A stretch of DNA of 24,000 bases from Arthrobacter sp. StoSoilA2 (GCF_019977195.1 NZ_AP024643.1:4296887-4320886); one strand, 5' to 3'; counted from the stretch's first letter, positions 2,071 to 22,681 are shown. Notes: generated from the sequence alone by a model not told the origin. Numbers and translations are program-made.

Positions 2071-2168
2071 CCGCCCCCATACACCCTGTGACAGCTTTGA
2101 CAGGAAAAGTGACTTCGTTGTGAAGTGGCCCCTAGCCAAGAAGGGGTGCCATCAACCATGCTTGCTGC

Positions 2169-2750
2169 ATGTACTCAACGACGAGCCCATACCGCATCAT
2201 CACGGTCTGCACTGGAAACATCTGCCGCTCGCCCATGGCAGCGCTCATGCTTACCGAGGCCTTCGAAGCGGAAGGGCTCGGCAAGCTGGTCGTCGTGGAC
2301 TCAGCAGGCACCACCGGGTACGAGGTGGGGCACCCGATCGATCCCCGGGCGGCCCGCAAACTGACCGCCCACCACATCGCTTCCGAGGATCACGTCGCAC
2401 GCCAGTGGCGGCAAGAGTGGTTCACTGAGCGGGATCTCATCCTGGCGCTGGACGTCGACCATTTCGGCTGGCTCCAGGAGGGCGCACCGGATCGCGAATC
2501 GCTGGCAAAAGTCCGGATGCTGCGCAGCTTCGATCCCATGATGGCTGGGCGCAGTTCCCTGGATTTGGGTATCGAGGATCCCTGGTACGGCGGCCACACC
2601 GACTTCGACAACACCTGGACCCTCATCAAAGCCGCCATTCCAGGCATTGTGCGCCACGTGGGCGCTGCCCTAGCGGAAGACCGCGGGAGTAGCGCCAGCG
2701 ACGTCCGGGACGGAGCCACCGAGCACCAGCAGGTAACCTCTATGTCATGA
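2169..2750 (+). CDS. Low-molecular-weight protein-tyrosine phosphatase
   Basis: 193-aa ORF with the CX5R(S) P-loop (VCTGNICRSP) near the N-terminus and the DPWYG general-acid motif. Its stop overlaps the next gene's start (ATGA at 2747-2750). Confidence 0.9.
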   Translation: MYSTTSPYRIITVCTGNICRSPMAALMLTEAFEAEGLGKLVVVDSAGTTGYEVGHPIDPRAARKLTAHHIASEDHVARQWRQEWFTERDLILALDVDHFGWLQEGAPDRESLAKVRMLRSFDPMMAGRSSLDLGIEDPWYGGHTDFDNTWTLIKAAIPGIVRHVGAALAEDRGSSASDVRDGATEHQQVTSMS

Positions 2751-4780: not shown

Positions 4781-4783
4781 GGA

Positions 4784-6277: not shown

Positions 6278-6352
6278 GAACTAACGGTGACCACAGCCTA
6301 TCCGCCCGCCGTGCAGGAGGGCCGCACCGGGGTGCCGCACTAAGCTGGGAAC

Positions 6353-7294: not shown

Positions 7295-7378
7295 TTCCGG
7301 CCGGCCAGACTGAGGCCTACTCTGCTCCGCTTGGAACCTAGCAGATGACAAGTAGAGTAATTGCTCGCATGACTTATT

Positions 7379-7437
7379 GATAAGGAACTCTTGGTCTCAG
7401 CAGTGACCTTCACGGGGGTTCAATCGCGTTCCTTATC
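7379..7437 (+). promoter_or_regulatory. Stem-loop in the 250-nt AT-richer leader of the permease gene (function unknown)
   Basis: GATAAGGAAC (7379-7388) pairs perfectly with GTTCCTTATC (7428-7437). An internal GGTC(n8)GACC hairpin is also present. It lies 109 nt upstream of the permease start. Confidence 0.25.
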
Positions 7438-7545
7438 CTCCTTGAAATGGGCGTCCGTCATGTGATGAATCTTGTTCTCGTGTTAGTTGGATCACGTCCT
7501 CCCAACACCATTTGAGACTTTGCTGGCTAACTTCCCGGAGGGAAT

Positions 7546-8994
7546 ATGGGACACAGCTCCCCCACAACAGCCGAGGCATCGGCACCCGAGGCGCAGTCGG
7601 AGACTGGCGCCTCACAGACAGGGCTTCGCCGGTCCATGGAGGCCCGGCACCTGGTGATGATTGCCATGGGTGGCGTCATCGGCTCAGGCCTTTTCGTCAG
7701 CTCGGGTTACACCATTGCCACCGCGGGCCCTTTGGGCGCCGTTCTCGCGTTCCTTATCGGAGCCGTGGTGGTCTACCTGGTGATGGCATGCCTCGGGGAA
7801 CTCGCCGTTGCGTTCCCCGTTTCCGGTGCCTTCCATATCTACGCTGCCCGGACCATCGGACCTGCCACCGGTTTCGCCACGGCCTGGCTCTACTGGCTTT
7901 GCTGGGCGGTGGCATTGGGTTCGGAATTCACTGCGGCCGGCCTGCTCATGCAGCGCTGGTTCCCTGGCGTCGACGTCTGGATTTGGTGCTTCATATTCGC
8001 CAGCGTCCTGTTCACCCTCAATGCCATCTCATCGCGTGTCTTCGGTGAATCAGAGTTCTGGTTCGCGCTCATCAAGGTTGCCGCCGTCGTCGGCCTGATT
8101 GTCTTGGGTGGCGCCGCTTTGATGGGCTTCCACCCGCTCGCCGCAGGCGACTACCCGTCGCTCACCAGCAACTTCAGCACACCCGAGGGGCTGTTCCCCA
8201 ACGGCTTCACGGGCGTCTTCGTCACCTGCCTGGCGGTCTTCTACGCCTTCTCAGGCTCCGAACTGATCGGTGTGGCCGCCGGCGAAACATCCAATCCCGG
8301 TGCCAACATCCCCAAGGCCATGCGGACCACGGTCATCCGTCTCATGATCTTCTTTGTCGGGGCGATTACCGTCATCGCAGCGACCATCCCCTATGAGAAG
8401 GTCAGCGTTGACGAAAGCCCGTTTGTCACCGTCTTCTCGATGCTCGGCATTCCGTTCGCTGCGGACATCATGAATTTCGTAATCATCACCGCCCTGTTGT
8501 CTGCTGGAAACTGTGGACTCTACTCCTGTGCCCGCATGCTCTTCTCGCTGGCCGACGAAGGACACGCCCCCAAGGCGTTCAGGAAGCTAACCAAGCGTGG
8601 CATCCCGATGATTGCCCTGTGCGTCAGCATGCTCGGTGGCCTTGCCTCGCTGATCAGCAGCATTGTGGCGCCGGCAACCGTGTACCTGGTTCTCGTCTCG
8701 ATCGCCGGCTTTGCAACTGTGGGCGTGTGGATGTCCATCGTGGCCTCGCACTTCGTGTACAGGCGTACGTTTATCAGGAACGGCGGCGACCTCAGCACGC
8801 TCCCTTACAAGGCACCGTTCTTCCCTCTGGTTCCGATCCTTGCGTTCGCGCTGTGCGTTGTGTCCCTGATCGGCATTGCCTTTGACCCCAACCAGGTAGC
8901 GGCACTGCTGTTCGGCATCCCGTTCGTAGGGGCTTGCTACGCGTTCTTCTACTTCAAGTACGGACGACGCGCCAAGATTCCCGTGGCCTCCTGA
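7546..8994 (+). CDS. Amino acid permease (APC superfamily, AAT family; LysP-like)
   Basis: 482-aa ORF with about 12 hydrophobic segments. The signature RHLVMIAMGGVIGSGLFVSSG...LGELAVAFPVSGAF is typical of basic/aromatic amino-acid permeases. GGAGGG lies 5-10 nt upstream of the ATG. Confidence 0.9.
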   Translation: MGHSSPTTAEASAPEAQSETGASQTGLRRSMEARHLVMIAMGGVIGSGLFVSSGYTIATAGPLGAVLAFLIGAVVVYLVMACLGELAVAFPVSGAFHIYAARTIGPATGFATAWLYWLCWAVALGSEFTAAGLLMQRWFPGVDVWIWCFIFASVLFTLNAISSRVFGESEFWFALIKVAAVVGLIVLGGAALMGFHPLAAGDYPSLTSNFSTPEGLFPNGFTGVFVTCLAVFYAFSGSELIGVAAGETSNPGANIPKAMRTTVIRLMIFFVGAITVIAATIPYEKVSVDESPFVTVFSMLGIPFAADIMNFVIITALLSAGNCGLYSCARMLFSLADEGHAPKAFRKLTKRGIPMIALCVSMLGGLASLISSIVAPATVYLVLVSIAGFATVGVWMSIVASHFVYRRTFIRNGGDLSTLPYKAPFFPLVPILAFALCVVSLIGIAFDPNQVAALLFGIPFVGACYAFFYFKYGRRAKIPVAS

Positions 8995-9009
8995 CTTCTT
9001 TGGCGGCAG

Positions 9010-9059
9010 ATCAGCCCCTGTGCAACCCATTCCGGCTGCGCAGGGGCTGATGTTGTTTG
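9010..9059 (+). terminator. Rho-independent terminator of the permease gene
   Basis: ATCAGCCCCTG (9010-9020) pairs with CAGGGGCTGAT (9041-9051). The stem extends by G.U plus 3 bp, giving a 12-nt loop, and is followed by GTTGTTTG. It starts 16 nt after the stop codon. Confidence 0.65.
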
Positions 9060-9093
9060 AAAGTAGGTCAGGACGCCAAACGGCCTCCCAAGT

Positions 9094-9582
9094 TCAGGAC
9101 TTCGGCTTTGCCGTCCTGACGGGGTGCTCGCTCAGGATGGACAGGCGGTTGAAGGCGTTGATCCCAATCGCGGCCATGCAGAGAACACTGATTTGCTCGT
9201 CGTTGTAGTGCTCCCGGGCGCGCTCGAAGAGTTCGGGGCTCGGCCGTGACGTGCTCATCCGGGTGATCTGCTCAGTGATTTCCATGGCCACCCGCTCAGC
9301 CGGTTCAAACAACGCCACTTCCTTGTAGACCGCCACCAAGGACAAACGCTGTTCCGTTTCGCCGTACCCCAAGGCCCGGCGATGGTGCAGGTCCAGGCAG
9401 AATGCGCAGCCGTTGATCTGCGACGCAAGGTAGTTCAGAAGTTCGATGGTCCGGCGTGGGACACCTGTACGGTCGGCTTCTCCAACCACCTGTTGGGCAT
9501 AGTGGCTCAGCGTTGCGTACAGCTCGGGCTGTTGCTTATCCAGATAGCCGGCGAGACGTGCTTTTGTTTCCTGTTCAGGCAT
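9094..9582 (-). CDS. Carboxymuconolactone decarboxylase / AhpD-like family protein
   Basis: 162-aa ORF with the AhpD-core CxxC motif in context (INGCAFCLDLHHRRA). Size and helical composition fit the CMD family. Confidence 0.85.
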   Translation of the reverse strand: MPEQETKARLAGYLDKQQPELYATLSHYAQQVVGEADRTGVPRRTIELLNYLASQINGCAFCLDLHHRRALGYGETEQRLSLVAVYKEVALFEPAERVAMEITEQITRMSTSRPSPELFERAREHYNDEQISVLCMAAIGINAFNRLSILSEHPVRTAKPKS

Positions 9583-9911
9583 GCTTGGAGCCTAGCGCAA
9601 CTGGTATGGAGTGCCGGAGTGAGAGGCATCCACCCCCGGAGTAGCACCGGCTCGAAATCAAATAGAGATGGGCGGTGGAAGCCGCATTATCGACATTTTA
9701 TGACCAGTTCATCACAAGCTGGAAATGAGACTTGACTACTAATCGATGCAAATGGAGCACCCACCCAAGGACGCAAATAAATACGCTTCCACTTTCTATT
9801 GCGCCCTCATTCCAACAGTGGTTCACTGAGGCGCAGTGATCCCTGCTGGGGCGGGAGAACTCCCTCTCTGTCCGGCAGGACACACTGTTTTCACTACGCC
9901 GTGGGAACAGA

Positions 9912-11681
9912 ATGTTGATGGAGGGCATCATTGTGAGTGCAGTTTCTTCGTCCCAAAATTTCAACCACGGGTTTCCTACGCCCGGCCCCCAGGATCCTTC
10001 CCCGCAGAAGGTCATGGACCACGTATTTTTCCTCAACCAGGAAGAATGGAAAGACGTCCGCGAAACGGAACAATTCGATCATATTGTCATCGGCAGCGGG
10101 TTCTGCGGGTACGCGTTCGCGGAGAGGACCCTGACCGTTAACCCCCAGGCCAGGATCCTGGTTATTGAGCGGGGTCCGTTCTTCCTGCCCCAGCATTTCC
10201 AGAACCTTCCGTTGCCCTATCGCGAGACCCTGGGCGGACTTTCTGAAACATTCCCATGGAGGCTGGCTGCCGCCACGGCCAACCAACCCGCCGGCAAGAT
10301 CTCCTGGCAGCACGGAATGGTTCCGTTCTATGGTGGCCGCTCCATTATGTGGAGCGCTTGGTGTCCGCGACCTGAAGAGGACGAGATGCGCGGGTGGCCA
10401 CGCGCAGTCATGGATGCCGCAAAAGCGCACTTCACCACTGCAGAGGATCTGCTGAATGTGGTCAGCGCCGACCAAATCGACGCCGGGGCGTCTGCCGACG
10501 TCGTGGATCTCATCAACAACACCCGGCCCGTCTACGGGATCATGCAGAAGGCACTACAGGACCGGCTGGCGGCCGGCTTGCACAAGATTGACTCGGCCAC
10601 CCGCTCCATGCCAGCACCATTGGCAGCAGCTTCGGGCGCGACCTCAGGCATTGACTTCGCCAAATTCTCAACGCCATCGGTGCTGCTTGAACTATCGGAC
10701 AGGCAGCAACGGCTGGCAGCAGCAGGCAAGGGATCCCCGCTCCGCATCGTTACGGACTGCACTGTCAACAGCATCATCCAGCAGGACGGCCGGGCCACAG
10801 CGCTCGATACCAGCCGCGGTGTGGTGAACATCGGAGACGCAAACCTGGTGCTTGCCATGGGCACGTTGCCACCTGCCACCCTGGTCCTCAATTCGTTCCC
10901 CGAAGTGCCTGGAGTCGGTGAGCAGTTCAGCGCCCACTTCATTACGTCCGTCGTTGCCAGGGTCCCCCGCAAGGACTTCGAGTTCAGCGAGGCCCTGGGC
11001 GAGTTGGAACTGGCCGCCATCTACATGGCAGGCATGAGTCCCGCGGGCATGCAGTACCACGTGCAGCTCTCGGTGCTCTCGGATCGGAGCCCGGATAAGA
11101 ACGCCCAGAAGTCCGAGCGTTACGCACCTGACGTCGTTGCCACCGCCTCGCTGGCCCAATTGCAGTCCTCGGAGGACTACCTGGTGTTCGTGTGCGCGGT
11201 ACTGGGCGAGCTGGACATCGATAACCCGGAAAACCACCTGCGCTATTCCGGTGGAGCGGACCCCACCAACAACGTGACTCTTCAGGTCCTGGCCAACTCC
11301 ACGGACGATGCCACATGGGACACCATGGACGAGGGCACTTTCCAGATGTTGGAACGCGTGCTGTCACCCGACGGCGCGGATCATGTTGAGTATTGGCACG
11401 GCGATCCGGACACCGGAACCTGGGGATCGGACCGGCCCGGCATTCCCGAGCGCCGCGTCCCGGGACTCGTGCACGAGAGCTCCAGCCTTCCCATCGGCGA
11501 GGACGAGGACTCCACCGTCGGCACCGACTACCGCCTCAACGGCGTCGAAAATGTCTATGTCGCGGGCGGTTCGCTGTGGCCGACCGGCGGGTCCTGGAAC
11601 CCAACCATGACCATGGTTGCGTTGACGCAGGACCTCGCCGAACGGTTGGAGGCCGACGGCGGCACGGGAGTTGCGCTGTGA
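9912..11681 (+). CDS. FAD-dependent GMC-family oxidoreductase (pyranose/cholesterol-oxidase-like)
   Basis: The N-terminal Rossmann motif is HIVIGSGFCGYAF. The C-terminus (NVYVAGGSLWPTGGSWNPTMTMVALTQDLAERL) matches the conserved GMC C-terminal FAD/substrate block. Start is ambiguous: ATG 9912; GTG 9933, which has the best SD (GGAGGG at 9920-9925); or ATG 10014. Confidence 0.8.
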   Translation: MLMEGIIVSAVSSSQNFNHGFPTPGPQDPSPQKVMDHVFFLNQEEWKDVRETEQFDHIVIGSGFCGYAFAERTLTVNPQARILVIERGPFFLPQHFQNLPLPYRETLGGLSETFPWRLAAATANQPAGKISWQHGMVPFYGGRSIMWSAWCPRPEEDEMRGWPRAVMDAAKAHFTTAEDLLNVVSADQIDAGASADVVDLINNTRPVYGIMQKALQDRLAAGLHKIDSATRSMPAPLAAASGATSGIDFAKFSTPSVLLELSDRQQRLAAAGKGSPLRIVTDCTVNSIIQQDGRATALDTSRGVVNIGDANLVLAMGTLPPATLVLNSFPEVPGVGEQFSAHFITSVVARVPRKDFEFSEALGELELAAIYMAGMSPAGMQYHVQLSVLSDRSPDKNAQKSERYAPDVVATASLAQLQSSEDYLVFVCAVLGELDIDNPENHLRYSGGADPTNNVTLQVLANSTDDATWDTMDEGTFQMLERVLSPDGADHVEYWHGDPDTGTWGSDRPGIPERRVPGLVHESSSLPIGEDEDSTVGTDYRLNGVENVYVAGGSLWPTGGSWNPTMTMVALTQDLAERLEADGGTGVAL

Positions 11682-12082
11682 CCGCGGTTCCGGCCCTGGA
11701 CCCGGCAGTCCTGCCTAACGTGCCGCCGATGACAGTTGCCGACGTCCTGGACAGGCAGGATGGCGTCTTTTGGGTGGTCAAGGACGCCAACTCCGTTTTC
11801 CTGTGGGTGAACCAGAACTTCGCGGACCTCGTGGGGATGACCAAGGACCAGTTGATTGGGCATCAGGACTCGCGGGCAGCCCATGTTGCCCATGACAAGG
11901 AGGTGATGGCCAGCGGAAAACCCCTGCTCAATTTCCACGAAGTCATCGAGGTTCCGTTGAAGGATGGCGGGACGGTGAACGTGGAAATCGTGACCCAGAA
12001 GGGGCTCCTCCGGTCGCTGGACACCGGGGCCATCATCGGGATCACTGTCTGCTTCTCACTTGCGGATCCCCCCAATGACTGA
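11678..12082 (+). CDS. Standalone PAS-domain protein (no output domain)
   Basis: The GTG at 11678 overlaps the GMC stop (GTGA) and has GGGAG 8 nt upstream. An alternative ATG is at 11729. The sequence VFWVVKDANSVFLWVNQNFADLVGMTKDQLIGH...HDKEVMASGKPL...GGTVNVEIVTQKGL...GAIIGITVCF follows the PAS fold pattern. The upstream part of the 11393 ORF is Arg-rich out-of-frame overlap with the GMC gene and is not coding. Confidence 0.7.
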   Translation: MTAVPALDPAVLPNVPPMTVADVLDRQDGVFWVVKDANSVFLWVNQNFADLVGMTKDQLIGHQDSRAAHVAHDKEVMASGKPLLNFHEVIEVPLKDGGTVNVEIVTQKGLLRSLDTGAIIGITVCFSLADPPND

Positions 12083-12662
12083 TGTGGATCTGGCAGGCGG
12101 GAGCCCAGGCATCCACTTCGCCAGCCCGGACGCGGCCAGCCCGAACGCAGCCAGCCCCGACGCGAAGGAGTGGATCAAGCGGTTGGACATGACGCCGTCG
12201 GGCGTTGGCGGCTGGTTCGCGCCGGCAATGGTGAGCGACGAGCTAATCGCCGGGCGGGCATTGCCACCTCGCTTTGGCAGTGACCATCCGCTGTACAGCT
12301 CCAACTGGTACCTGTTGCAGGCGGGCGAAGTCCTCCAGCTGCACACTTTGAAGCAGGACGAGCTGTGGTTCTTCCATCTGGGCACCCCCATTCGGCTGCA
12401 CGTTTTTTCGCAGACAGAGGGGTACTCATCAACGGTCTTCGGTCCGGATCCGGAGTCTGGTGAGATTCTGCATGGCGCGGCGCCGCATTCCACATGGTTC
12501 GGGGCTGAGCTGGCTGGGGACGGGTTTGTCCTGGCGAGCTGCAGCCTGTCCCCCGGCTATGAACCGAGCGATTCCGCGAAGCCCACGAGCGAAGATGTGG
12601 AGGCACTCGTGGCGCAGTTCCCTGGTCAGTCGGAGTTGATCAGGAGGCTCGCGGCCGGCTAA
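12075..12662 (+). CDS. Cupin-fold protein (DUF985-like)
   Basis: The ATG at 12075 overlaps the PAS gene's end (ATGACTGA). The core (WIKRLDMTPSGVGGWF...LYSSNWYLLQAGEVLQLHTLKQDELWFFHLG...GFVLASCSLSPGY) resembles the DUF985 cupin family. The N-terminal 30 aa is a low-complexity ASP(D/N)A repeat. Confidence 0.7.
   Translation: MTDVDLAGGSPGIHFASPDAASPNAASPDAKEWIKRLDMTPSGVGGWFAPAMVSDELIAGRALPPRFGSDHPLYSSNWYLLQAGEVLQLHTLKQDELWFFHLGTPIRLHVFSQTEGYSSTVFGPDPESGEILHGAAPHSTWFGAELAGDGFVLASCSLSPGYEPSDSAKPTSEDVEALVAQFPGQSELIRRLAAG
12120..12164 (+). repeat. In-frame 15-bp tandem repeat x3 inside the cupin N-terminus
   Basis: The three units are GCCAGCCCGGACGCG, GCCAGCCCGAACGCA and GCCAGCCCCGACGCG. They encode ASPDA-ASPNA-ASPDA. 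Confidence 0.9.
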
Positions 12663-12672
12663 CCGCCACTGA

Positions 12673-12703
12673 AGGGTGCGCCCGTATGGGGAGGGCGCAC
12701 CCT
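12673..12703. terminator. GC-rich hairpin between convergent operons (candidate bidirectional, U-tract-less terminator)
   Basis: A-GGGTGCGCCC (12673-12683) pairs perfectly with GGGCGCACCC-T (12693-12703), giving an 11-bp stem and a 9-nt loop. It lies 11 nt after the cupin stop. There is no T-run on either side, which is common in Actinobacteria. Confidence 0.5.
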
Positions 12704-12715
12704 CCAGCGGGGCGT

Positions 12716-12857
12716 GAAGTGAGAGAACATCCGCCCAAAGGCCGCTGGAAGTGAGAGAGCATCCGCCCAAAGACCGCTGGAAGTGAGAGAACATCCGCCC
12801 AAAAGCCGGTGGAAGTGAGAGAAGATCCGCCCAAAAGCCGCTGGAAGTGAGAGAGCA
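12716..12857. repeat. 32-bp direct tandem repeat, 4 full copies plus a 14-nt partial copy
   Basis: Units start at 12716, 12748, 12780, 12812 and 12844 (partial). The consensus is GAAGTGAGAGAACATCCGCCCAAAGGCCGCTG, with 1-3 substitutions per copy. The array ends 2 nt before the stop codon of the minus-strand PLP-enzyme gene. Confidence 0.95.
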
Positions 12858-12859
12858 AG

Positions 12860-13912
12860 CTATTCGGTGGCGTCGCGGGCCAGGTGGATGCCGTTCTCTG
12901 CCAGCCACACCGGGTTGAAGGCCTTGCTCAGGTAGTTCGTTCCGGCGTCGGGCGCTATGGCAACCACCACCGAACCGTGGGGTGCGGCCCGGGCCACGCG
13001 CAGGGCAGCAGCCACCGCGAGTCCGGACGATGGACCCAGCGCCAGCCCTTCTTCGTCAAGGAGCCGATGCACCGTGGAGTAGACCTCGTCGTTGGGGATG
13101 CGCAGGAAACGGTCAACAATGGAGCGGTCAAAGGCCTTGGGCCATTCAGCCTGTGGCCAGGAGTTACCCACGCCGTCCACCAGGATCTCCCCAGGATGGC
13201 CACCACTGTAGGCGGAGCCGTAGGGGTCGGCGCCTATCACTTCAAGATGCCCGCCCGGCCGCGATGCTGCAACCTTCTCTTTCAGGAACCGGCCGTTGCC
13301 GCTAATGGTCCCGCCGGTTCCGATGCCGGCCACGAAATGCGTCACCAGGCCGTGGGTCTGCTCCCAAATCTCGGGCCCGGTAGTTTGGTAGTGCGCGGCA
13401 GGATTGGCAGGGTTGTCGAATTGCATGGGCCGCCACGCACCTGGCGTTTCGGCCGTGATCCGCGCTGCCACAGCGCGGGCGTTCTCCGGCGATTCGGAGG
13501 GCGCGCCCCAGTCCGTCAGCACCACGCGCGCACCATAGCTGTGGAGTGCGGCGAGCTTCTCCTGGGAGATGGTGTCGCCCGTAACCACCACCACGGGGTG
13601 CCCCGTCAGCCGCCCGATGAGCGCCAGCCCGATCCCGGTATTACCGGACGTGCTCTCCACAATGGTTGCGCCCGGCTGTAACTCTCCTGAGCGCTCCGCC
13701 GCCCGGACCATGCTCAGCGCTGTACGGTCCTTGATGGATCCGCCCGGGTTCTCGGACTCAAGCTTGATGTGGATGGTGCTGCCCAATCCACGGCCCAGGG
13801 CTTCCAATTTCACCAGCGGAGTGTTGCCCACTTTATCCAGGACGGAGGCATCCAGGCCATCCGGCAGCCCTGCCGCCGCATGTGCGCCCTGTTTCCTGAT
13901 TGCGGTACTCAC
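12860..13912 (-). CDS. Cysteine synthase / cystathionine beta-synthase-fold PLP-dependent enzyme (no CBS regulatory domains)
   Basis: 350-aa ORF with a PLP-lysine block (NPGGSIKDRTAL), the TSGNTGIGLA asparagine-loop region, a GIGTGGTISG phosphate loop, and a CBS-like VDGVGNSWP...IVDRFLRIPNDE segment. The GTG start overlaps the upstream gene's stop (GTGA at 13909-13912). Confidence 0.85.
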   Translation of the reverse strand: MSTAIRKQGAHAAAGLPDGLDASVLDKVGNTPLVKLEALGRGLGSTIHIKLESENPGGSIKDRTALSMVRAAERSGELQPGATIVESTSGNTGIGLALIGRLTGHPVVVVTGDTISQEKLAALHSYGARVVLTDWGAPSESPENARAVAARITAETPGAWRPMQFDNPANPAAHYQTTGPEIWEQTHGLVTHFVAGIGTGGTISGNGRFLKEKVAASRPGGHLEVIGADPYGSAYSGGHPGEILVDGVGNSWPQAEWPKAFDRSIVDRFLRIPNDEVYSTVHRLLDEEGLALGPSSGLAVAAALRVARAAPHGSVVVAIAPDAGTNYLSKAFNPVWLAENGIHLARDATE

Positions 13913-15522
13913 GTGGTCCCCTCCCTTTGAGCCATCGGCGGCAATTCCAACGCCACCACCTCACGCAATTCACGTCGGGCGCGCTCCACCAGGTCCGGAG
14001 CGGACGGCCGATGCGCCAGGACATCAGCCAGCCGGCCCGCGACGGCGCCGGTCCCCTTCCCAAGCGGTTGGGCGGCCCCCGCTTCGAACAACAGATACGA
14101 CGCCGTCAGAGCCTCAATAGCAAGCAATTTCTCCAAGGCCTCCAAGGACCTTTCAAGTTGCTGCAACGCCAGCGGCGCCAAGGTGGAGTGGTCCTCGACG
14201 TCGGCCGAGAGGGTGGGTGCCCCGAGCGTCGCCGGCGCTGCCAGGAACTTCAGTTCGGACAGCAGTCCTGCTGCGGAGTACCAGAGCAGCCCGGGCAACT
14301 CCTCCTGCACAAGGCCCGCGGCCGGTCCGGACCCGGAGATCGCATTCGACGACGAACCCTCCAGGTGCCCGGCGGCAGCCTCCAGATGTCTGGCCCGGAT
14401 CACCCGCTGTGGCGGATACAGTTTGGCGATGCGCCGCTCGCTGGAAATCCCCACGTGCGCCAACGCAAGCCGCAGGCCCTCAAAGGAAAGAGCCAGCTGC
14501 ATCGGTTGGAAATTCCCTCCGGACACCATTTGCCCGCTTTCAATATCAACCAGGGGGTTGTCGCCACGCCCGTTGAGCTCCACGCTCAACGCAGCGCCGA
14601 GTTGTGAAACCAGGGAGCGAAAAGCGCCATGCGTCTGGGGCGCAGAACGGAATGACAAAGCATCCTGCACCGAGACTTCGGGACGAACGTCCTCCAACCA
14701 CCCGCCGCGCAAAAGGTAACGGACGGCGGCCGCCGAGTCCTTCTGCCCGTCCACCGCCTTGCCCGCTTGGATAGCCGGCGAAAACGGGCTGAGGTTCCCG
14801 CCGCCGTCGTACCTTGCAATGGCTTCAAGCGAGAGGGAAAGCGCGACGTCGGCGAGTTCCGCCAGCTGTTGCAGGCGCACCAAGGCAAGGGTGCCGGCCC
14901 CCACGGAGTAGGCGTTCGCGCTGACCATGGCCAGGGCCTCACCGGGCGCGAGCCGCAGCGGCTGAAGACCGGCGTCGGCGAGCGCTTTCGCCCCGGGTAC
15001 CAGGGTGCCGTTCGCGTCGATGGCTTCACCTTCACCGATGGCGACGGCGGCGACGGCGGCCAGCTGGGTGAGGTCGGAGGAGCCGACTGAGCCTTCGCGC
15101 GGGATGGCGGGAAGAACCCCACGGTTGAGCAGTTCCGCATAGAACTGCGCTGTCTCCGGCCGCACGCCGGAGCCGCCGCGGCTGAAGCCGATGAGCCGGG
15201 CGAGGATCACAGCGCGGGCGGAGGGCCGGTCCAGATGCGCGCCCACGCCGCTGTTGTGGTATCTGACGACTTGGATTTGATAGGCAAGAACCGACTTCTC
15301 CTCCACGGCCGTATCCCGTCCGGATCCGAGGAGGGTGTTCAGGCCGTAGATTCTCTGCCCTGAGTTCGCAGCGCGCTCCAGCACTTCGCGTGATCGGCCG
15401 ATCAAAGACAACGCATCATGGTTGAGTTTCACGTGAAACGCCGGATCCAAGGCAGCGTCCGCTACGCGCACAGGGTCCACCGGCGATGTGCCGATCAAGA
15501 AGGTCCGGGGCTCGGAGGACAT
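13909..15522 (-). CDS. Histidine/aromatic-amino-acid ammonia-lyase family homologue lacking the MIO-forming Ala-Ser-Gly triad
   Basis: 537-aa ORF with clear HAL-family blocks (IYGLNT, LLNRGVLPAIPREGSVG, VQDALSFRSAPQTHG, GDNPLV, SADVEDHS). Where HutH has GSVGASGDLAPLA this protein has GSVGSSDLTQLA, which is one residue shorter and has no Gly. Confidence 0.85.
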   Translation of the reverse strand: MSSEPRTFLIGTSPVDPVRVADAALDPAFHVKLNHDALSLIGRSREVLERAANSGQRIYGLNTLLGSGRDTAVEEKSVLAYQIQVVRYHNSGVGAHLDRPSARAVILARLIGFSRGGSGVRPETAQFYAELLNRGVLPAIPREGSVGSSDLTQLAAVAAVAIGEGEAIDANGTLVPGAKALADAGLQPLRLAPGEALAMVSANAYSVGAGTLALVRLQQLAELADVALSLSLEAIARYDGGGNLSPFSPAIQAGKAVDGQKDSAAAVRYLLRGGWLEDVRPEVSVQDALSFRSAPQTHGAFRSLVSQLGAALSVELNGRGDNPLVDIESGQMVSGGNFQPMQLALSFEGLRLALAHVGISSERRIAKLYPPQRVIRARHLEAAAGHLEGSSSNAISGSGPAAGLVQEELPGLLWYSAAGLLSELKFLAAPATLGAPTLSADVEDHSTLAPLALQQLERSLEALEKLLAIEALTASYLLFEAGAAQPLGKGTGAVAGRLADVLAHRPSAPDLVERARRELREVVALELPPMAQREGTT

Positions 15523-15524
15523 GC

Positions 15525-16853
15525 TCAGAAGTCCAGAAGATTCTGGCGGAAGCCACCGTCGCCGTAACTCTTCCTCAACAGGCCACGGCGGCGCAGTTCG
15601 GGAGTGAGCTTGTCCAACACGCCGTGCACGGTGACGGGGTCCACGAAGCCGGAGAAGAGGAAGCCGTCGCCACCCACAGCCTCGCCGGTCTCCTCGAGAT
15701 AATCCGCGATTTCACCAACCGTGCCGATGATTGAATCACCGGCGCCACCGCTGCGTGCCTGAAGGATCTGGCGCAGGGTAGACCCCGGAGGCGCCGCCTT
15801 GGCGAAGTGCTCCAACGTGCCTTGGTTGCTGTTGGTGCTCAATTCGGGCAACGGCGCATCAAGGTCGAATTGCTTGAAGTCGATCACGGACAGGTAGGAG
15901 ATCGAATTGAGCTGGCTGTCGATATCACGCTGGGTAAGCTCCCGGCGCTGCGCACGCAACTCCCCGGCCTCGGCCGATGAACCAACCACGGTGGGCTTCA
16001 GCACGAAAAGTACCTTGACGTCGTCGGGGTTCCTGCCCGCCTTTGCAGCCTCGGCACGGATGGAATCCCGGTAGGCCTTCATGCCGTCAACGCCACGGGC
16101 CAAGGCGATCGCCACGTCTGCATGCCCACCCGCGAACGCTTTGCCGCGGGGAGAAGCGCCGGCCTGCACCAGTACGGGCTCCTCCGGCAGAGGTGCGGTG
16201 TTGAGGGGACCGCGGACCTTGAAGAAGTCGCCTTGGTGGTTAATGGGGTGCACTTTGGTGTGGTCGGCGAACACGCCGGCCTCAACGTCCTCAAGGACGG
16301 CGTCCGGTTCCCAGCTCCGCCAAAGCCTGCGGACGACGTCGACGAATTCCTCCGCCTTCTCATATCGAAGGTCGTGTTCAATCTGCTGGTCCAAACCGTA
16401 ATTCTGTGCTGCGAGGTCGCTGCCGGAAGTTACGACGTTCCATCCCAACTGCCCCTCGGAGAAGTGCTGCAGCGTGGCCAGGAGGCGGGCCGCAGTGAAA
16501 GGCGGATAGAACGATGCGCTGACCGTCGGGACGATTCCAAGGTGCTCGGTGGCGGACAGAAGGTACGGCACCAGGGCCAAAGGATCATGTTTGGGCGCAA
16601 AGGAGGCGTGTGCCAGCGAGACCTCGGCAGTGCCGCCATAGGTATCGGGAACAGTAAGGGAGTCCTCGATGATGAAGAGGTCAAGGCCGGATTGCTCAAA
16701 CGCGCGGACGGCGTCTTGATACAGGGCAGGCTTCTTCCAGTCGTAGCCCAGGCTGTAGCCGGGAGTTCCCCATCCCTGGACACCAAAACCGTGCCCCACG
16801 AACCATCCAAAATGCAGCATGGGCTTGAGTGTAGAGCTGCCTTGTCCGTTCAC
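15525..16853 (-). CDS. LLM-class flavin-dependent monooxygenase, NtaA/SnaA/DszA subfamily
   Basis: 442-aa ORF. The N-terminus (MLHFGWFVGHGFGVQGWG) and its length are typical of the nitrilotriacetate monooxygenase component A family. The start may be the GTG at 16853 or the ATG at 16820. The stop lies 2 nt from the lyase-like gene's ATG. Confidence 0.88.
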   Translation of the reverse strand: MNGQGSSTLKPMLHFGWFVGHGFGVQGWGTPGYSLGYDWKKPALYQDAVRAFEQSGLDLFIIEDSLTVPDTYGGTAEVSLAHASFAPKHDPLALVPYLLSATEHLGIVPTVSASFYPPFTAARLLATLQHFSEGQLGWNVVTSGSDLAAQNYGLDQQIEHDLRYEKAEEFVDVVRRLWRSWEPDAVLEDVEAGVFADHTKVHPINHQGDFFKVRGPLNTAPLPEEPVLVQAGASPRGKAFAGGHADVAIALARGVDGMKAYRDSIRAEAAKAGRNPDDVKVLFVLKPTVVGSSAEAGELRAQRRELTQRDIDSQLNSISYLSVIDFKQFDLDAPLPELSTNSNQGTLEHFAKAAPPGSTLRQILQARSGGAGDSIIGTVGEIADYLEETGEAVGGDGFLFSGFVDPVTVHGVLDKLTPELRRRGLLRKSYGDGGFRQNLLDF

Positions 16854-16945
16854 CGCGACCTGATTTCTTGCGAAGTTACAGGGGGTCGTACTGCGTCAAT
16901 TATGCTCCCGGGGCGTCACATTTGGGCTGCTACTCCAGCACCGGC

Positions 16946-16975
16946 CGGTTACGCAACATGACGACCGCGTAACCG
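16946..16975. promoter_or_regulatory. Palindrome in the divergent control region (candidate operator)
   Basis: CGGTTACGC (16946-16954) and GCGTAACCG (16967-16975) form a perfect 9-bp inverted repeat with a 12-nt spacer. A third GTTACG lies at 17005-17010. It sits between the LLM operon start and the riboswitch. Confidence 0.3.
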
Positions 16976-17018
16976 CTTGCAAGTGCGGGCCGCCGCCGCG
17001 GGATGTTACGTTTTTCTT

Positions 17019-17136
17019 GAGTAATGAGCACCAGCGCCAAGCCCTGACTTGCTGGTCGGCAACCCTCTCTCCGGCGGGGTGCCTCAGGTGACTACTCGGC
17101 GTATCGACACTTCGAACTGCAAGCGTGACTGAGGAG
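17019..17136 (+). promoter_or_regulatory. SAM-IV-class S-adenosylmethionine riboswitch (translational), including the downstream Shine-Dalgarno
   Basis: Near-collinear identity with the structurally studied mycobacterial SAM-IV RNA as I remember it. Ours reads AAUGAGCACCAGCGCCAAGCCCUGACUUGCUGGUCGGCAACCCUCUCUCCGGCGGGGUGCCUCAGGUGACUACUC. The reference reads CAUGAGUGCCAGCGUCAAGCCCCGGCUUGCUGGCCGGCAACCCUCCAACCGCGGUGGGGUGCCCCGGGUGAUGACC. P1 is GAGUA (17019-17023) with UACUC (17093-17097). P2 is ACCAGC (17030-17035) with GCUGGU (17051-17056), which covaries with the reference GCCAGC/GCUGGC. The 3' tail GCAAGCG (17119-17125) is shared, and GAGGAG (17131-17136) lies 9 nt before the ATG at 17146. Confidence 0.75.
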
Positions 17137-17145: not shown

Positions 17146-17412
17146 ATGCCTGAACCCACTGAAGAAAAACTCTCCTACCGCCTGATTACAGGTCCGGATA
17201 CCCGTGAATTCTGCGAGCGGATCACCACGGCACTCGCCGACGGCTACGTGCTCCACGGCAGCCCGGCAGCCACGTTCAATGGCACGGATGTCATCGTGGC
17301 GCAGGCGGTCGTCCTGCCCGCTGCCATCGCCAACGCAGACGCCGCCGTCGCGAATGCTGTTGACCAGTTGGAGAACGACGACGACGAAGAAGCATTCGAG
17401 GGACACGCATGA
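17146..17412 (+). CDS. Small conserved hypothetical protein (possibly DUF1737-like), acidic C-terminal tail
   Basis: I prefer the ATG at 17146, preceded by GAGGAG, over the track's GTG at 17125, which lies inside the riboswitch. The sequence SYRLITGPDTREFCERITTALADGYVLHGSP resembles DUF1737 as I recall it. The stop overlaps the rhodanese start (ATGA). Confidence 0.65.
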   Translation: MPEPTEEKLSYRLITGPDTREFCERITTALADGYVLHGSPAATFNGTDVIVAQAVVLPAAIANADAAVANAVDQLENDDDEEAFEGHA

Positions 17413-17819
17413 GCTACGCAGGTGACCTGACCCCGCAGGACGCGTGGGCCAAGCTTGAAGAAGGCGCAATCCTGGTAGACGTCCGCACCGAGGCCGAGTG
17501 GGCCCACATCGGCATCCCGGACACCAAAGCCACAGAGAATGATCCCCTGTTTATTCAGTGGAACCTCGCCGGTGGCATTCCCAACTCCCGCTTCATCGAG
17601 GACCTGCAGCAGCAGGCACCCGAGGGTGAGGGAGTGGAGCTCGTTTTCATCTGCCGCTCAGGCCAGCGCTCCATCTCGGCCGCCATCGCCGCGACGCAGG
17701 CCGGGTTCACCGCCTACAACGTGCTTGAGGGCTTCGAAGGTGACCCCGACCGTTACGGCGAACGGACCATCAACGGCTGGAAGAACCGCGGCCTGCCAAC
17801 CAACCTGGGGAACGACTAA
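17409..17819 (+). CDS. Single-domain rhodanese-like sulfurtransferase
   Basis: 136-aa ORF with an active-site loop CRSGQRS preceded by a hydrophobic strand (ELVFI) and the LVDVRTEAEW entry motif. Confidence 0.9.
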   Translation: MSYAGDLTPQDAWAKLEEGAILVDVRTEAEWAHIGIPDTKATENDPLFIQWNLAGGIPNSRFIEDLQQQAPEGEGVELVFICRSGQRSISAAIAATQAGFTAYNVLEGFEGDPDRYGERTINGWKNRGLPTNLGND

Positions 17820-19028
17820 GTGACTTTCAATCCCGATGCCGCCAGCTGGAGCCCTGACACCCAGGCAGTACGCGGCGGCCTTGACCGTACCAACTTCCAG
17901 GAGACGTCCGAACCCGTTTTCCTGAACTCCGGCTTCGTCTACGAATCCGCTGCCGCCGCCGAACGCGCCTTCACCGGCGAGGACGAACGCTTCGTTTACT
18001 CCCGCTACGGCAACCCGTCCGTGGCCACGTTCCAGGAACGCTTGCGGTTGCTCGAAGGAACCGAGGCATGCTTCGCGACGGCGTCCGGCATGTCCGCGGT
18101 GTTCACCGCCTTGGGTGCCCTCCTGGCTGCCGGTGATCGCGTGGTTGCCGCCCGTTCCCTGTTCGGCTCGTGCTTCGTGATCCTCAACGAGATCCTGCCG
18201 CGCTGGGGCGTAGAGACCGTGTTTGTCGACGGTCCCGACCTCGACCAGTGGCGGGCTGCCCTCTCCGAACCGACCACCGCCGTATTCTTCGAGTCGCCCT
18301 CGAACCCCATGCAGGAAATCGTGGACATCGCCGCCGTCAGCGAGCTGGCGCATGCTGCGGGAGCGACCGTCGTCGTCGACAACGTCTTTGCCACACCCCT
18401 GCTGCAGCGTTGCGGTGACCTGGGCGCGGACGTCATTGTGTACTCCGGAACCAAGCACATCGATGGCCAGGGGCGTGTCCTCGGCGGCGCAATCCTGGGC
18501 ACCAAGGAATTCATCGACGGCCCGGTCAAGCAGTTGATGCGGCACACCGGACCTTCACTCTCCGCCTTCAATGCCTGGGTGTTGACCAAGGGCCTGGAGA
18601 CGATCGGCCTGCGGGTGAACCACAGCTCGGCGTCTGCTTTGAAAATCGCGGAATGGCTCGAGCAGCAGCCTGCCATTAACTGGGTCAAGTACCCCTTGCT
18701 GAAATCGCACCCTCAGTACGAGCTGGCAGCCAAGCAAATGAAGGCCGGCGGTACCGTGCTGACCTTCGAGTTGCTGCCCTCCTCCGGGCGTTCGGCCAAG
18801 GATGCCGCGTTTGCGTTGCTGGACGGTCTGCGCGTCATCGACATCTCCAACAACCTGGGCGACTCCAAGTCCCTCATCACGCACCCGGCCACCACCACCC
18901 ACCGGGCCATGGGGCCCGAAGGGCGTGCGGCCATTGGGCTGAGCGACGGCGTGGTCCGTTTGTCCGTTGGCCTGGAAGACGTGGACGATCTCATTTTGGA
19001 TCTGGAGAAGGCCCTCAAACAGGTCTAA
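17820..19028 (+). CDS. metZ: O-succinylhomoserine (or O-acetylhomoserine) sulfhydrylase, Cys/Met-metabolism PLP family
   Basis: 402-aa ORF. The GTG start immediately follows the rhodanese TAA, with GGGGAA upstream. Motifs present are DTQAVRGG, YSRYGNPS, ATASGMSAV, and the PLP-lysine block YSGTKHIDGQG. A rhodanese-metZ pairing is also known in Mycobacterium tuberculosis (Rv0390-Rv0391). Confidence 0.9.
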   Translation: MTFNPDAASWSPDTQAVRGGLDRTNFQETSEPVFLNSGFVYESAAAAERAFTGEDERFVYSRYGNPSVATFQERLRLLEGTEACFATASGMSAVFTALGALLAAGDRVVAARSLFGSCFVILNEILPRWGVETVFVDGPDLDQWRAALSEPTTAVFFESPSNPMQEIVDIAAVSELAHAAGATVVVDNVFATPLLQRCGDLGADVIVYSGTKHIDGQGRVLGGAILGTKEFIDGPVKQLMRHTGPSLSAFNAWVLTKGLETIGLRVNHSSASALKIAEWLEQQPAINWVKYPLLKSHPQYELAAKQMKAGGTVLTFELLPSSGRSAKDAAFALLDGLRVIDISNNLGDSKSLITHPATTTHRAMGPEGRAAIGLSDGVVRLSVGLEDVDDLILDLEKALKQV

Positions 19029-20954: not shown

Positions 20955-22478
20955 CTAGTCCTGGAAGTACTCCACCTTGGCGCCAATGGTGTTCAGTCGC
21001 TCGGCCAGGTCCTCGTAGCCGCGTTCAATCACGTAAATGTTGCGAAGCTCGGACGTTCCACGGGCAGCCAACATGGCCAGGAGCAGGCACGCTGCCGGAC
21101 GCAGGGCCGGCGGGCAGCCAATTTCCGCGGCGCGCCACTTGGTGGGTCCGTTGACGTAGATCCGGTGCGGGTCCAGGAGCTGCACTTGGGCGCCCAGCTT
21201 GTTGAGCTCCGTCAGGTAGATGGCGCGGTTCTCGTAGACCCAGTCGTGGATCATCGTCTGGCCCTCGGCATTGCCTGCAATCACTGCGAAGAAGGGCAGG
21301 TTGTCGATGTTGAGCCCCGGGAACGGCATGGGGTGGATCTTGTCCTGTGGCGCGTGGAGTTCAGAAGGCTTGGTGGTGACATCCACCAAACGCGTCCGGC
21401 CGTTGCGGGCCGTGTATTCACCCGAGATTTCCAGCTTCTGGCCCATTTGTTCCAGGGTGGCGAGCTCGATTTCCATGAATTCGATGGGAACCCGGCGGAT
21501 GGTGACCTCGGAGTTCGTGACGATGCCCGCGGTGATGAGGCTCATGGCTTCGATGGGATCCTCGGACGGGAAGTATTCGATCTCCACGTCTATGGCTGAC
21601 CGGCCCGTGATCTTCAAAGTCGTGGTGCCGACGCCCTCGATGGTCACGCCCAAGCCCTGCAGGTAGAAGCAAAGATCCTGGACCATGTAATTAGGGCTCG
21701 CGTTGCGGATCACGGTGGTGCCCTCGCGGTGCGCGGCAGCCATGATCGCGTTCTCGGTGACGGTGTCGCCACGTTCGGAGAGGACGAAGGAACGGTCGTG
21801 CCCATCGGCAGGGGGTGCCACCACGGAGTAGAAGCCGGACTTTGCCCCCACCGTCAGCCCGAACTGGCGCAATGCCTGCATGTGCGGTTCAACGGTGCGC
21901 GTGCCGAGGTCGCATCCACCGGCATAGGGAAGCAGGTACTCGGCGGTCTCGTCCAGGAGGGGGCCGAGCAGCATAATGACGCTGCGTGTGCGCCGGGCTG
22001 CTTCCACATCCATCGACTCAAGGTCAAGCACTTCGGGCCTGCGGATACGGAGGTCGCTGCCGTTGAGCCAGGTGCATTCGACGCCGATGGACGTCAGCAC
22101 CTCAACGATCCGGTTGACTTCCTCAATGCGGGCCAAGCGACGCAGCGTGGTGGTGCCGCGGTTGATCAGGCTTGCACAAAGCAGAGCCACGCCGGCATTC
22201 TTGCTGCTGTTGACATCCACTTCGCCGGACAGCGTGTGGCCGCCCTCCACCCGGAGGTGAGTCATCTGCGGCTTGCCTACTTTGACGATGGAACGGCCGA
22301 AGATGGCCTCCAGCCGCTCGATCATTCTGAGGCTGAGATTCTGTTTGCCCTGCTCCATCCGGGCGATAGCGCTCTGGCTGGTTCCCAGCTCGGAAGCCAA
22401 CTGCCCCTGCGTCCAGCCCTTTTCGCTTCGCGCGTCGCGGAGCAGGAGGCCTACATTCTCGGCGGTAGGTTGCGTCAT
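20955..22478 (-). CDS. XRE-family HTH domain fused to a MurA-like enolpyruvyl transferase (EPSP-synthase fold)
   Basis: Residues ~1-65 form a Cro/C1-type HTH (LLRDARSEKGWTQGQLASELGTSQSAIARMEQGKQNLS). The remainder aligns by eye with E. coli MurA. It keeps Lys22 (NSSKNAG), the Cys115 loop (AGGCDLGTRTVEPH versus PGGCTIGARPVDLH), Asp305 (NID), Arg397 (ALRPAA) and ERGYE. I prefer the ATG at 22478; the track uses the TTG at 22484. Confidence 0.85.
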   Translation of the reverse strand: MTQPTAENVGLLLRDARSEKGWTQGQLASELGTSQSAIARMEQGKQNLSLRMIERLEAIFGRSIVKVGKPQMTHLRVEGGHTLSGEVDVNSSKNAGVALLCASLINRGTTTLRRLARIEEVNRIVEVLTSIGVECTWLNGSDLRIRRPEVLDLESMDVEAARRTRSVIMLLGPLLDETAEYLLPYAGGCDLGTRTVEPHMQALRQFGLTVGAKSGFYSVVAPPADGHDRSFVLSERGDTVTENAIMAAAHREGTTVIRNASPNYMVQDLCFYLQGLGVTIEGVGTTTLKITGRSAIDVEIEYFPSEDPIEAMSLITAGIVTNSEVTIRRVPIEFMEIELATLEQMGQKLEISGEYTARNGRTRLVDVTTKPSELHAPQDKIHPMPFPGLNIDNLPFFAVIAGNAEGQTMIHDWVYENRAIYLTELNKLGAQVQLLDPHRIYVNGPTKWRAAEIGCPPALRPAACLLLAMLAARGTSELRNIYVIERGYEDLAERLNTIGAKVEYFQD

Positions 22479-22681
22479 ACTCAAGAAATATCACAAGTGA
22501 GCTAGAACTGCTGAACAAATTGCCGATTCAGCGGCAAACATCACACGGTACCCGCATAGTGCGATAACTCCGCCTCAAAATCAGCTTCTTCATGGAAAGC
22601 CCCACGATTTGAGAACCGGGCCGAAGCAACCTATCTTGAACTTAAGTAAGCCTAACCTAAGCTTGAAAGCGGTCTGAGAGA

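Follow-up and report, generated by a model that had tools for sequence, protein, structure and literature searches.

In a 24,000-nucleotide stretch of the Arthrobacter sp. StoSoilA2 genome (GCF_019977195.1, NZ_AP024643.1:4296887-4320886; ~63% G+C), which we refer to as the window, three adjacent minus-strand genes encode a luciferase-like monooxygenase (LLM), a lyase of the histidine ammonia-lyase (HAL) fold that lacks the residues forming the 4-methylideneimidazole-5-one (MIO) group, and a pyridoxal 5'-phosphate (PLP) enzyme of fold type II. This trio is a conserved operon in Micrococcales. Because its proteins are poor in sulfur and its neighborhood is one of sulfur metabolism, a role in sulfur starvation is likely, and we consider it probable from the sequences that the operon serves scavenging under sulfur limitation. 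What it scavenges can be proposed only tentatively: we read the trio as a sulfur-starvation-type operon that obtains its sulfur from an organic sulfur compound, the likeliest being an ergothioneine-family thio-betaine derived from histidine, and we give this reading slightly less than an even chance.

Conservation and sulfur-poor composition of the operon

The three genes are closely packed. The LLM stop codon (TGA, 15527-15525) is followed by only two nucleotides, gc, before the lyase ATG (15522-15520), and the lyase TGA shares bases with the GTG start of the PLP gene in the sequence GTGA (13912-13909); this GTG stands behind a strong Shine-Dalgarno sequence, aaagggagggga. The start of the LLM is ambiguous, either the GTG at 16853 (442 aa) or an ATG eleven codons downstream (431 aa), and annotated orthologues have 431 and 444 aa. 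Both junctions recur in other genomes (loci are numbered here as L001 and so on): the 2-nt LLM-lyase gap is present in the called genes of L001 and L002 and in the Microbacteriaceae loci L084 and L085, and the 4-nt lyase-PLP overlap in those of L001 and L002. An initial annotation of this DNA had given the coordinates of the three genes and both junctions, had described a translationally coupled operon, and had placed it back to back with a SAM-riboswitch/rhodanese/MetZ operon. The coordinates and junctions are borne out by the sequence and by the orthologous loci, the gap and the overlap agree with the coupled architecture, and the neighbor is genuine, its riboswitch being of the SAM-IV class (S-adenosylmethionine; RF00634).

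To survey the distribution of the trio, we scanned one genome per species, which yielded 80 loci, and then ran the window proteins against these loci by tblastn. The full trio is present in 70 of the 71 Micrococcaceae loci, from Arthrobacter, Paenarthrobacter, and Pseudarthrobacter, and the rhodanese and MetZ genes adjoin it in 69, the other two (L015 and L066) being truncated by contig ends. It is also present in Microbacteriaceae (L073, L076, L084, and L085), where the genes are ordered (rhodanese-)PLP-LLM-lyase and the operon begins with a two-domain rhodanese; Leifsonia, Microbacterium, and Glaciihabitans are the Microbacteriaceae genera among the matches. Since the trio is thus found in two Micrococcales families with rearranged gene order, its co-occurrence reaches beyond close relatives, which the initial annotation had named as one way to test its proposal. 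The nearest lyase homologues in a homology search, from Paenarthrobacter and Arthrobacter, are 94-98% identical. The LLM is the best conserved of the three proteins, with a median identity of 95% (87-99% in Micrococcaceae and 62-68% in Microbacteriaceae), and the lyase has diverged most (median 80%). Six distant MIO-less lyases (41-45% identity) were considered as a source of informative neighbors and set aside: their neighbors are unrelated (genes for adenylate cyclases, for a multicopper oxidase, and for sulfatases, besides housekeeping genes) and include neither an LLM nor a PLP partner.

The composition of the three proteins was not noticed in the initial annotation. None of them contains a cysteine, and the LLM, lyase, and PLP enzyme have two, four, and two internal methionines, respectively. 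Cys plus Met makes up 0.45-0.75% of their residues, compared to 1-4.8% in most other proteins of the window; the exception among the neighbors is the rhodanese, at 0.74%. Trio orthologues of both families have a median of zero Cys, and the lyases of Leifsonia and Microbacterium have neither Cys nor internal Met in 486 residues. Cys plus Met amounts to 3-3.6% in non-trio MIO-less lyases, has a median of 2.85% in HAL-family representatives, and has a median of 2.75% in representatives with the ergothionase-like Lys described below, where it never falls under 1.7%. These comparisons indicate that the depletion is specific to the trio lineage. Sulfur economy in proteins made under sulfur limitation is an established phenomenon, reportedly documented by Mazel and Marliere in 1989 and by Baudouin-Cornu et al. 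in 2001. In Escherichia coli, the sulfur content of the expressed proteome drops under sulfur depletion (PMC4357790). The composition of the trio is that which would be expected of proteins induced by sulfur starvation. The link to sulfur proposed in the initial annotation is further supported by the conserved adjacency to the SAM-IV riboswitch, rhodanese, and MetZ, by insertions of SulP genes, by the rhodanese within the Microbacteriaceae operon, and by the sulfur-acting relatives of the LLM.

In L007, the spacer between the MetZ operon and the LLM gene holds a gene for a STAS-domain SulP sulfate permease (6811-8652, minus strand), and ~2 kb of extra spacing like that of L007 is present in about half of the Paenarthrobacter-type loci. 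The spacer is an insertion hot spot, in which many other Paenarthrobacter probably carry SulP; in L001 (Arthrobacter sp. ISL-30), it holds an open reading frame (ORF; 5345-6199) that looks transposase-like by eye. Additional LLM genes occur in L066 and L074. L066 (Pseudarthrobacter sp. NPDC059871, 397-11590) is a variant locus located away from MetZ, with genes for an ABC transporter ATPase, an SBP_bac_5 protein, a class II aldolase, a second LLM, a divergently oriented PLP enzyme, the LLM, and the lyase; the aldolase and the second LLM each have no Cys and no Met, and the island as a whole is sulfur-depleted. In L054 (Arthrobacter cavernae, 8133-11533), the LLM gene has been cleanly deleted, so that a SulP permease gene and the promoter and leader of the trio abut the lyase gene. 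The catalytic Tyr59 of the L054 lyase is replaced by His, which may mark the start of decay after the loss of a partner. As a single case, L054 is consistent with functional coupling of the LLM and the lyase.

This variation bears on whether the three enzymes share a pathway at all. The operon could be a composite of sulfur-poor enzymes that act independently, such as an oxygenase for organosulfur compounds, a lyase for betaines, and a spare isozyme of cysteine synthase or cystathionine beta-synthase, which are co-expressed only because they answer to the same signal. The PLP gene has no fixed position: it follows the LLM-lyase pair in Micrococcaceae, precedes it in Microbacteriaceae, and is divergently oriented in L066. 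This would suit such a composite, as would whole neighborhoods like L066 that are sulfur-depleted islands of unrelated enzymes. However, the 2-nt LLM-lyase junction is kept across two families, and in the one genome from which the LLM was lost, the lyase has a substitution at its catalytic Tyr. In addition, a betaine lyase that yields nitrogen or carbon would have no evident reason to belong to a sulfur regulon if its substrate were not connected with the sulfur compound. We consider a composite operon unlikely and prefer to read the trio as one scavenging pathway.

The MIO-less lyase and its predicted substrate

The lyase matches PF00221 at 355 bits and falls under every equivalog cut-off for HutH, phenylalanine ammonia-lyase (PAL), and tyrosine ammonia-lyase (TAL); for HutH, it scores 283 bits against TIGR01225 (cut-off 539) and 293 bits against NF006871 (cut-off 524). 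The MIO triad is absent: where HAL has GSVG-ASG-DL, the window lyase has GSVG-SS-DL, which is one residue shorter, and the loop of the trio lyases reads SS in 65 of 75 and SA or AA in 10. We searched the lyase against 1.84 billion protein-cluster representatives (50% identity). The top clusters are overwhelmingly MIO-less with a two-residue loop, and the first canonical HAL with ASG or SSG appears at rank 47 (~230 bits). Across ~130 full-length representatives, the two-residue loop co-varies with two further changes relative to HAL, Asn195 to Ser (in the motif VSxN) and Tyr280 to Leu, Ile, or Val. All three changes are present in the ergothionase of Treponema denticola (Td_ETL, 6S7J), which is the second-best PDB sequence match of the lyase (170 bits). 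The signature motifs are GSSD, VSANA, and QDALSFR in the window lyase and GEGD, VSCNA, and QDPLSFR in Td_ETL, so the two proteins share the two-residue loop, VSxN, and D(A/P)LSFR; by overall sequence, they are only ~30-35% similar.

The active site is otherwise retained. Conserved residues of the lyase are Y59, H89, Q286, R292, N322, F338, and E443, among which the catalytic Y59, the carboxylate ligands Q286, R292, and N322, and the imidazole ligands H89 and E443 (HAL His83 and Glu414) are invariant or nearly so in 75-84 orthologues. The lyase thereby resembles the known MIO-less lyases (the ergothionases Td_ETL and SO_3057 of Shewanella oneidensis, the histidine-betaine lyase Swoo_3913 of S. 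woodyi, and the N(pi)-methyl-histidine-betaine lyase SO_3299), which have the PF00221 fold, a two-residue loop in place of Ala-Ser-Gly, and the changes Asn195 to Ser and Tyr280 to Leu, and which keep the catalytic Tyr, the Gln/Arg/Asn set, and the imidazole-binding His and Glu. MIO-deficient lyases characterized so far strictly need a trimethylammonium group (bioRxiv 10.64898/2026.04.22.720169), and the MIO-deficient trimethylammonia-lyases comprise ergothionase, histidine-betaine lyase, and N(pi)-methyl-histidine-betaine lyase (two recent preprints). On this basis, the lyase is placed in the MIO-less trimethylammonia-lyase class and is predicted to be a betaine lyase acting on an imidazole compound. 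The betaine-type substrate suggested in the initial annotation is plausible because the lyase has the MIO-less signatures in common with ergothionase and keeps the imidazole-binding residues of HAL.

Which betaine it might act on depends on one position. The specificity residue at Td_ETL Lys384 is Lys for the ergothioneine thiolate, Asn in hercynine lyase (HBTL), and Gln in SO_3299 (preprints), and replacement of Lys384, which is required for thiolate binding, kills ergothionase activity (published work). In a direct alignment with a chimeric query, Lys384 (PDB chain index 383, an offset of -1) corresponds to Tyr415 of the window lyase. This residue is Tyr in 78 of 78 trio-type lyases, and Lys occupies the position in 26 other MIO-less representatives. 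Because the thiolate-binding Lys is replaced by an invariant Tyr, the lyase is, as judged from this alignment, not a canonical ergothionase. Tyr415 would fit a thiolate-free substrate, such as hercynine, better; it marks the lyase as not of the Lys type and leaves the substrate unnamed.

The same position weighs on a pathway in which the lyase would act first as an ergothionase, producing thiourocanate and trimethylamine, after which the LLM would desulfurize thiourocanate oxidatively and the PLP enzyme would re-fix the sulfur. The MIO-less signatures shared with the T. denticola ergothionase and its rank among the PDB matches favor this order, and the resemblance of the LLM to C-S-cleaving enzymes and the sulfur-starvation signature would suit it as well. 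Yet the Lys that is essential in ergothionase is Tyr throughout the trio-type lyases, and none of the Lys-type MIO-less representatives is sulfur-depleted. We regard an ergothionase-first order as improbable and favor a lyase that acts on a hercynine-like compound.

Other features set the lyase apart from its characterized relatives. It is cytoplasmic, unlike the periplasmic Shewanella enzymes, and its coupling is to an LLM and a PLP enzyme within a sulfur-depleted operon rather than to flavocytochrome reductases or to a pathway with thiourocanate hydratase. A further difference is an insertion at residues ~373-409 (~14296-14406) that is Gly/Ser/Ala-rich, highly variable, and found only in Micrococcaceae; the insertion directly precedes the helix with Tyr415 and is absent from Microbacteriaceae orthologues, HAL, and ergothionase. 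The faster divergence of the lyase is due in part to this lineage-specific insertion.

A divergent lyase paralogue with no Cys and no Met is found in L086 (Plantibacter flavus) and L087 (~2000-13100), directly upstream of an OpuAC-type (betaine) ABC transporter with an almost sulfur-free binding protein. Two rhodaneses are nearby, as is a PF01613 flavin reductase gene, which we found only near this Plantibacter-type paralogue. The locus looks like a further sulfur-starvation module, which may serve to take up a sulfur-containing betaine. We did not count the OpuAC neighbor as direct support for a betaine substrate of the trio: the paralogue lacks the catalytic Tyr and other active-site residues, so this evidence is weak and indirect.

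A possible pathway and its alternatives

The LLM belongs to the NtaA/DmoA family, with 373 bits to TIGR03860 (cut-off 279.7) and 130.7 bits to the TIM-barrel family PF00296 (cut-off 27.9). Its nearest solved structures are DmoA (6ak1, 258 bits), DszA (5tlc, 237 bits), and MoxC/YtnJ (213 bits). It shares the TIGR03860 subfamily and a sulfur-related setting with the DmoA, DszA, YtnJ/MoxC, and YxeK systems; however, it is not an orthologue of these enzymes (best match 258 bits over ~390 residues), and its operon, unlike the sulfur-starvation LLM systems, includes no flavin reductase, desulfinase, or deacetylase. To our knowledge, none of the DmoA, DszA, ytmI, or yxe systems includes a HAL-fold lyase. 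From these relationships, we infer a role for the LLM in C-S bond cleavage.

The PLP enzyme scores 247 bits against PF00291. Its best NCBIfam match is cystathionine beta-synthase (CBS; TIGR01137, 339 bits, cut-off 510), and because this match covers only profile positions 4-321 of 457, the enzyme has no Bateman module. It also falls under the equivalog cut-offs for CysK-type PRK10717 (305 bits against 387), CysM (278 against 394), and SbnA (214 against 350). The structure nearest to it is the catalytic domain of Mycobacterium tuberculosis CBS Rv1077 (295 bits), and its translation contains SIKDR with the PLP-binding lysine, the Asn-loop TSGNTG, and the Gly-rich phosphate loop GIGTGGT. The enzyme is thus like the Bateman-less or O-acetylserine-dependent CBS (MccA type) and CysM in its fold-type II core, its motifs, and its best matches, and unlike CBS and CysM in falling under every curated equivalog cut-off, in having no C-terminal Bateman module, no Cys, and two Met, and in its variable gene position. 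Its function may be to recapture sulfur. With these results, the families proposed in the initial annotation stand for all three proteins: an LLM above both family cut-offs, an HAL homologue in PF00221 that lacks the ASG triad, and an enzyme of the CBS/CysK fold.

Relatives of the PLP enzyme and the lyase also occur in biosynthetic clusters, where CysK-fold (SbnA) and HAL-fold proteins are found, and the sub-threshold NCBIfam matches include SbnA and aminomutases. The trio could accordingly produce a modified amino acid or natural product, by beta-replacement on the PLP enzyme, hydroxylation by the LLM, and a HAL-fold lyase or mutase. This is very improbable. Pfam scans of the large ORFs in the window detected no nonribosomal peptide synthetase, polyketide synthase, tailoring, or export genes nearby; the sulfur-depleted proteins adjoin sulfur assimilation genes and are core-genome-like in ~70 species; and the known aminomutases need the MIO group, which is absent here.

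We therefore return to scavenging, for which the scheme that we favor is as follows. The DmoA/DszA-like LLM, using reduced flavin mononucleotide (FMNH2), would attack the sulfur of an ergothioneine-type thio-betaine, either by oxidizing the 2-thioimidazole sulfur, which would depart as sulfite, or by unmasking an S-substituted derivative. The coupled lyase would then take trimethylamine off the hercynine-like product to give urocanate, and the CBS/CysK-type PLP enzyme would return reduced sulfur to cysteine or cystathionine, alongside the rhodanese and MetZ. We favor this scheme because it explains most of the observations together: the sulfur-starvation operon, an LLM of a sulfur-related type, an imidazole lyase without the Lys, a thiol-fixing PLP enzyme, and the rhodaneses. 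Substrate identity, step order, and induction by sulfur limitation are all putative, deduced from the genes and their setting. That the substrate is ergothioneine or a hercynine-type betaine seems to us possible, at rather less than an even chance. The interpretation in the initial annotation is partly supported: sulfur salvage and the lack of a characterized pathway are retained and strengthened, and the first step, in which the lyase acted on ergothioneine, is given up: the invariant Tyr at the Lys384 position is better suited to a hercynine-like substrate.

Several points weigh against this scheme. The large ORFs of the window include no flavin reductase of the PF01613 or SsuE type, although one may be encoded elsewhere in the genome, and the window includes no transporter for the trio. 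Tyr is also the commonest residue at the 415 position in true MIO-containing HALs. To turn a thione into sulfite, repeated oxygenation is needed, which would be unusual for one LLM acting alone, and it is not clear why the clearance of hercynine alone should call for such tight LLM-lyase coupling in a sulfur-starvation operon. The PLP enzyme may simply be an isozyme that is free of sulfur and mechanistically unconnected with the LLM and the lyase, and regulation by sulfur is deduced from protein composition and gene neighborhood. Finally, the trio of the Microbacteriaceae is followed by a convergent gene for a GNAT protein and by genes for an SBP_bac_3 (polar-amino-acid type) ABC transporter, which by analogy resemble the S-alkylcysteine systems of Bacillus subtilis more than a betaine uptake system.

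The Microbacteriaceae genes suggest another substrate. GNAT and SBP_bac_3 transporter genes are part of the yxe and ytmI operons, and the Microbacteriaceae set mirrors yxeK-L-M-N-O. The trio might then salvage S-substituted cysteines (S-methyl-, S-alkyl-, or S-(2-succino)cysteine) as in B. subtilis ytmI/yxe: the PLP enzyme would make or remodel the S-substituted cysteine, the LLM would cut the C-S bond on the non-cysteine side in a DmoA-like demethylation, and the lyase would act on a by-product or expel a leaving group other than ammonium. The matches of the LLM to YtnJ/MoxC and DmoA speak for this, as do the GNAT protein, which has no Cys, and the set of SBP_bac_3 protein, permease, and ATPase beside the trio; CBS/CysK enzymes, moreover, take many thiol nucleophiles. 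On the other side, no M20 deacetylase of the YxeP/YtnL type is nearby, the GNAT and ABC transporter genes are absent from all Micrococcaceae loci, including the window, and the Microbacteriaceae permease and ATPase are not sulfur-depleted. S-substituted cysteine salvage would also leave a lyase with an imidazole-binding His and Glu and betaine-type signatures without a role. We consider it fairly unlikely and retain the thio-betaine scheme.

The components of the scheme can be compared with the known fates of ergothioneine. In the aerobic route, ergothionase is followed by thiourocanate hydratase and then a desulfhydrase, and Nalivaiko et al. are said to have described, in 2024, an actinobacterial ergothioneine dioxygenase and sulfinate desulfinase that release hercynine and SO2. 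An aerobic pathway of ergothioneine degradation is cited in published work, and degradation through an anaerobic thiourocanate desulfhydrase is also known (bioRxiv 10.64898/2026.04.22.720169). The trio would share with these routes a lyase of the ergothionase class and, as predicted end products, hercynine or urocanate and inorganic sulfur. The partner enzymes of the known routes were absent from the Pfam scans of the large ORFs in the window, and desulfurization by an FMNH2-dependent LLM would be a novel type of step for compounds of this class. In the literature that we searched, no paper describes a combination of LLM, MIO-less lyase, and PLP enzyme, in line with the earlier statement that no characterized pathway is built this way, and we found nothing relevant on ergothioneine with an LLM or on sulfur limitation in Arthrobacter. 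Each component is of a known kind; the combination appears to be new, and it includes a new MIO-less lyase of the Tyr type. Going one step further, the LLM-lyase pair might constitute a new flavin-dependent oxidative route, distinct from the known fates of ergothioneine, by which sulfur-starved soil Micrococcales would gain assimilable sulfur from ergothioneine-type thiohistidine betaines or their S-substituted forms, with the lyase as a new Tyr-type specificity class; we offer this as a speculative proposal that is rather unlikely to hold in full.

Leader, flanking elements, and significance

The trio has a conserved upstream block of its own, ~65 nt long, in which a -10-like CATAAT is accompanied by the leader GTAACnnCGnATGAAATCAGG. 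Each of 70 loci has a single copy of the leader motif, and the block in its full length is shared by 71 upstream regions; it stays with the LLM gene when a SulP gene is inserted upstream and is joined to the lyase gene in the LLM-less L054. A riboswitch or other structured leader upstream of the LLM was ruled out, as the leader has no Rfam match at E <= 1 and folds worse than shuffled controls (z = +2.0). This lack of a match and low structure point to a protein regulator; an operator for a protein, together with the promoter, is the more likely content of the leader. The trio is outside the control of the SAM-IV riboswitch, which faces the other way. A perfect inverted repeat, GGTTACGC-N12-GCGTAACC (~16950-16978), was considered as an operator; it is conserved in only four or five of the closest relatives and is for this reason not a general feature. 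Several GTAAC/GTTAC motifs are present in the window at 16854-17020, including ctGTAAC in the trio leader and the family-conserved AAAAACGTAAC and cgTCATgTTgCGTAAC near the riboswitch promoter, and may be candidate sites for a regulator shared by the two divergent operons.

Table 1. Positions of the trio and its flanking elements, counted from the first nucleotide of the window.
Feature	Position	Strand	Description
LLM	15525-16853	-	FMNH2-dependent luciferase-like monooxygenase, NtaA/DmoA family; 442 aa, or 431 aa with internal ATG
MIO-less HAL-fold lyase	13909-15522	-	537 aa, predicted trimethylammonia-lyase type; PF00221
PLP enzyme	12860-13912	-	Fold-type II, beta-replacement type, 350 aa; CBS/CysK-type core without Bateman domains
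Trio promoter and 5' leader (putative)	16854-16925	-	CGGGAGCATAATTGAC ... GTAACnnCGnA(T/A)GAAATCAGG, then GTG start
SAM-IV riboswitch	17020-17131	+	RF00634, 81 bits against gathering score 38, full-length match
DUF1737	17146-17412	+	PF08410
Rhodanese	17409-17819	+	PF00581
MetZ	17820-19028	+	O-succinylhomoserine sulfhydrylase; NF005870, 758 bits against cut-off 618
32-bp tandem repeat	12716-12854	.	4.3 copies, 92% matches, Tandem Repeats Finder (TRF) score 236
GC-rich hairpin	12662-12713	.	-43.4 kcal/mol, z = -7.17, 0/200 shuffles as stable

Between the riboswitch and the rhodanese gene is a DUF1737 ORF, whose stop codon shares ATGA (17409-17412) with the rhodanese start; DUF1737 genes are called at the same position in L001 and L002 and were detected by tblastn in about half of the loci. 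Downstream of the trio, the repeat array and hairpin described in the initial annotation are real features according to TRF and folding. The 32-bp array belongs to the 3' region of the operon, where it follows the PLP stop codon and precedes the hairpin. In the closest relatives, L004 and L006, only two degenerate copies occupy this site, and there is one marginal match in L024, which indicates local expansion of the array; a dispersed element was rejected, since the repeat occurs nowhere else in the window or elsewhere in 87 loci. The hairpin sits between the convergent PLP and cupin genes and is missed by a consensus terminator scan because it has no U-tract. It is likely a bidirectional terminator, and the operon's transcript may plausibly run across the repeats as far as the hairpin. 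Elsewhere in the window (20955-22484, minus strand), an XRE-type helix-turn-helix domain (PF01381) is fused N-terminally to a MurA-like UDP-GlcNAc 1-carboxyvinyltransferase (NF006873, 323 bits against 297), an unusual combination that is kept at 88-99% identity in the Micrococcaceae loci.

Many fungi and actinobacteria produce ergothioneine and betaines related to it, and how these compounds are turned over is only beginning to be resolved. If the proposed scheme is true, it would give ergothioneine-type betaines a new, FMNH2-dependent fate that is tied to sulfur assimilation, extend DszA/DmoA-like monooxygenases to a new type of reaction, and add a new class of specificity to the MIO-less HAL-fold lyases. 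Even with another substrate, the trio would be a clean and widely conserved member of a Micrococcales sulfur-starvation regulon. Its conserved promoter and leader could be used to find the regulator, and the near-absence of Cys and Met may provide a simple sequence marker for other sulfur-starvation genes in these genomes.

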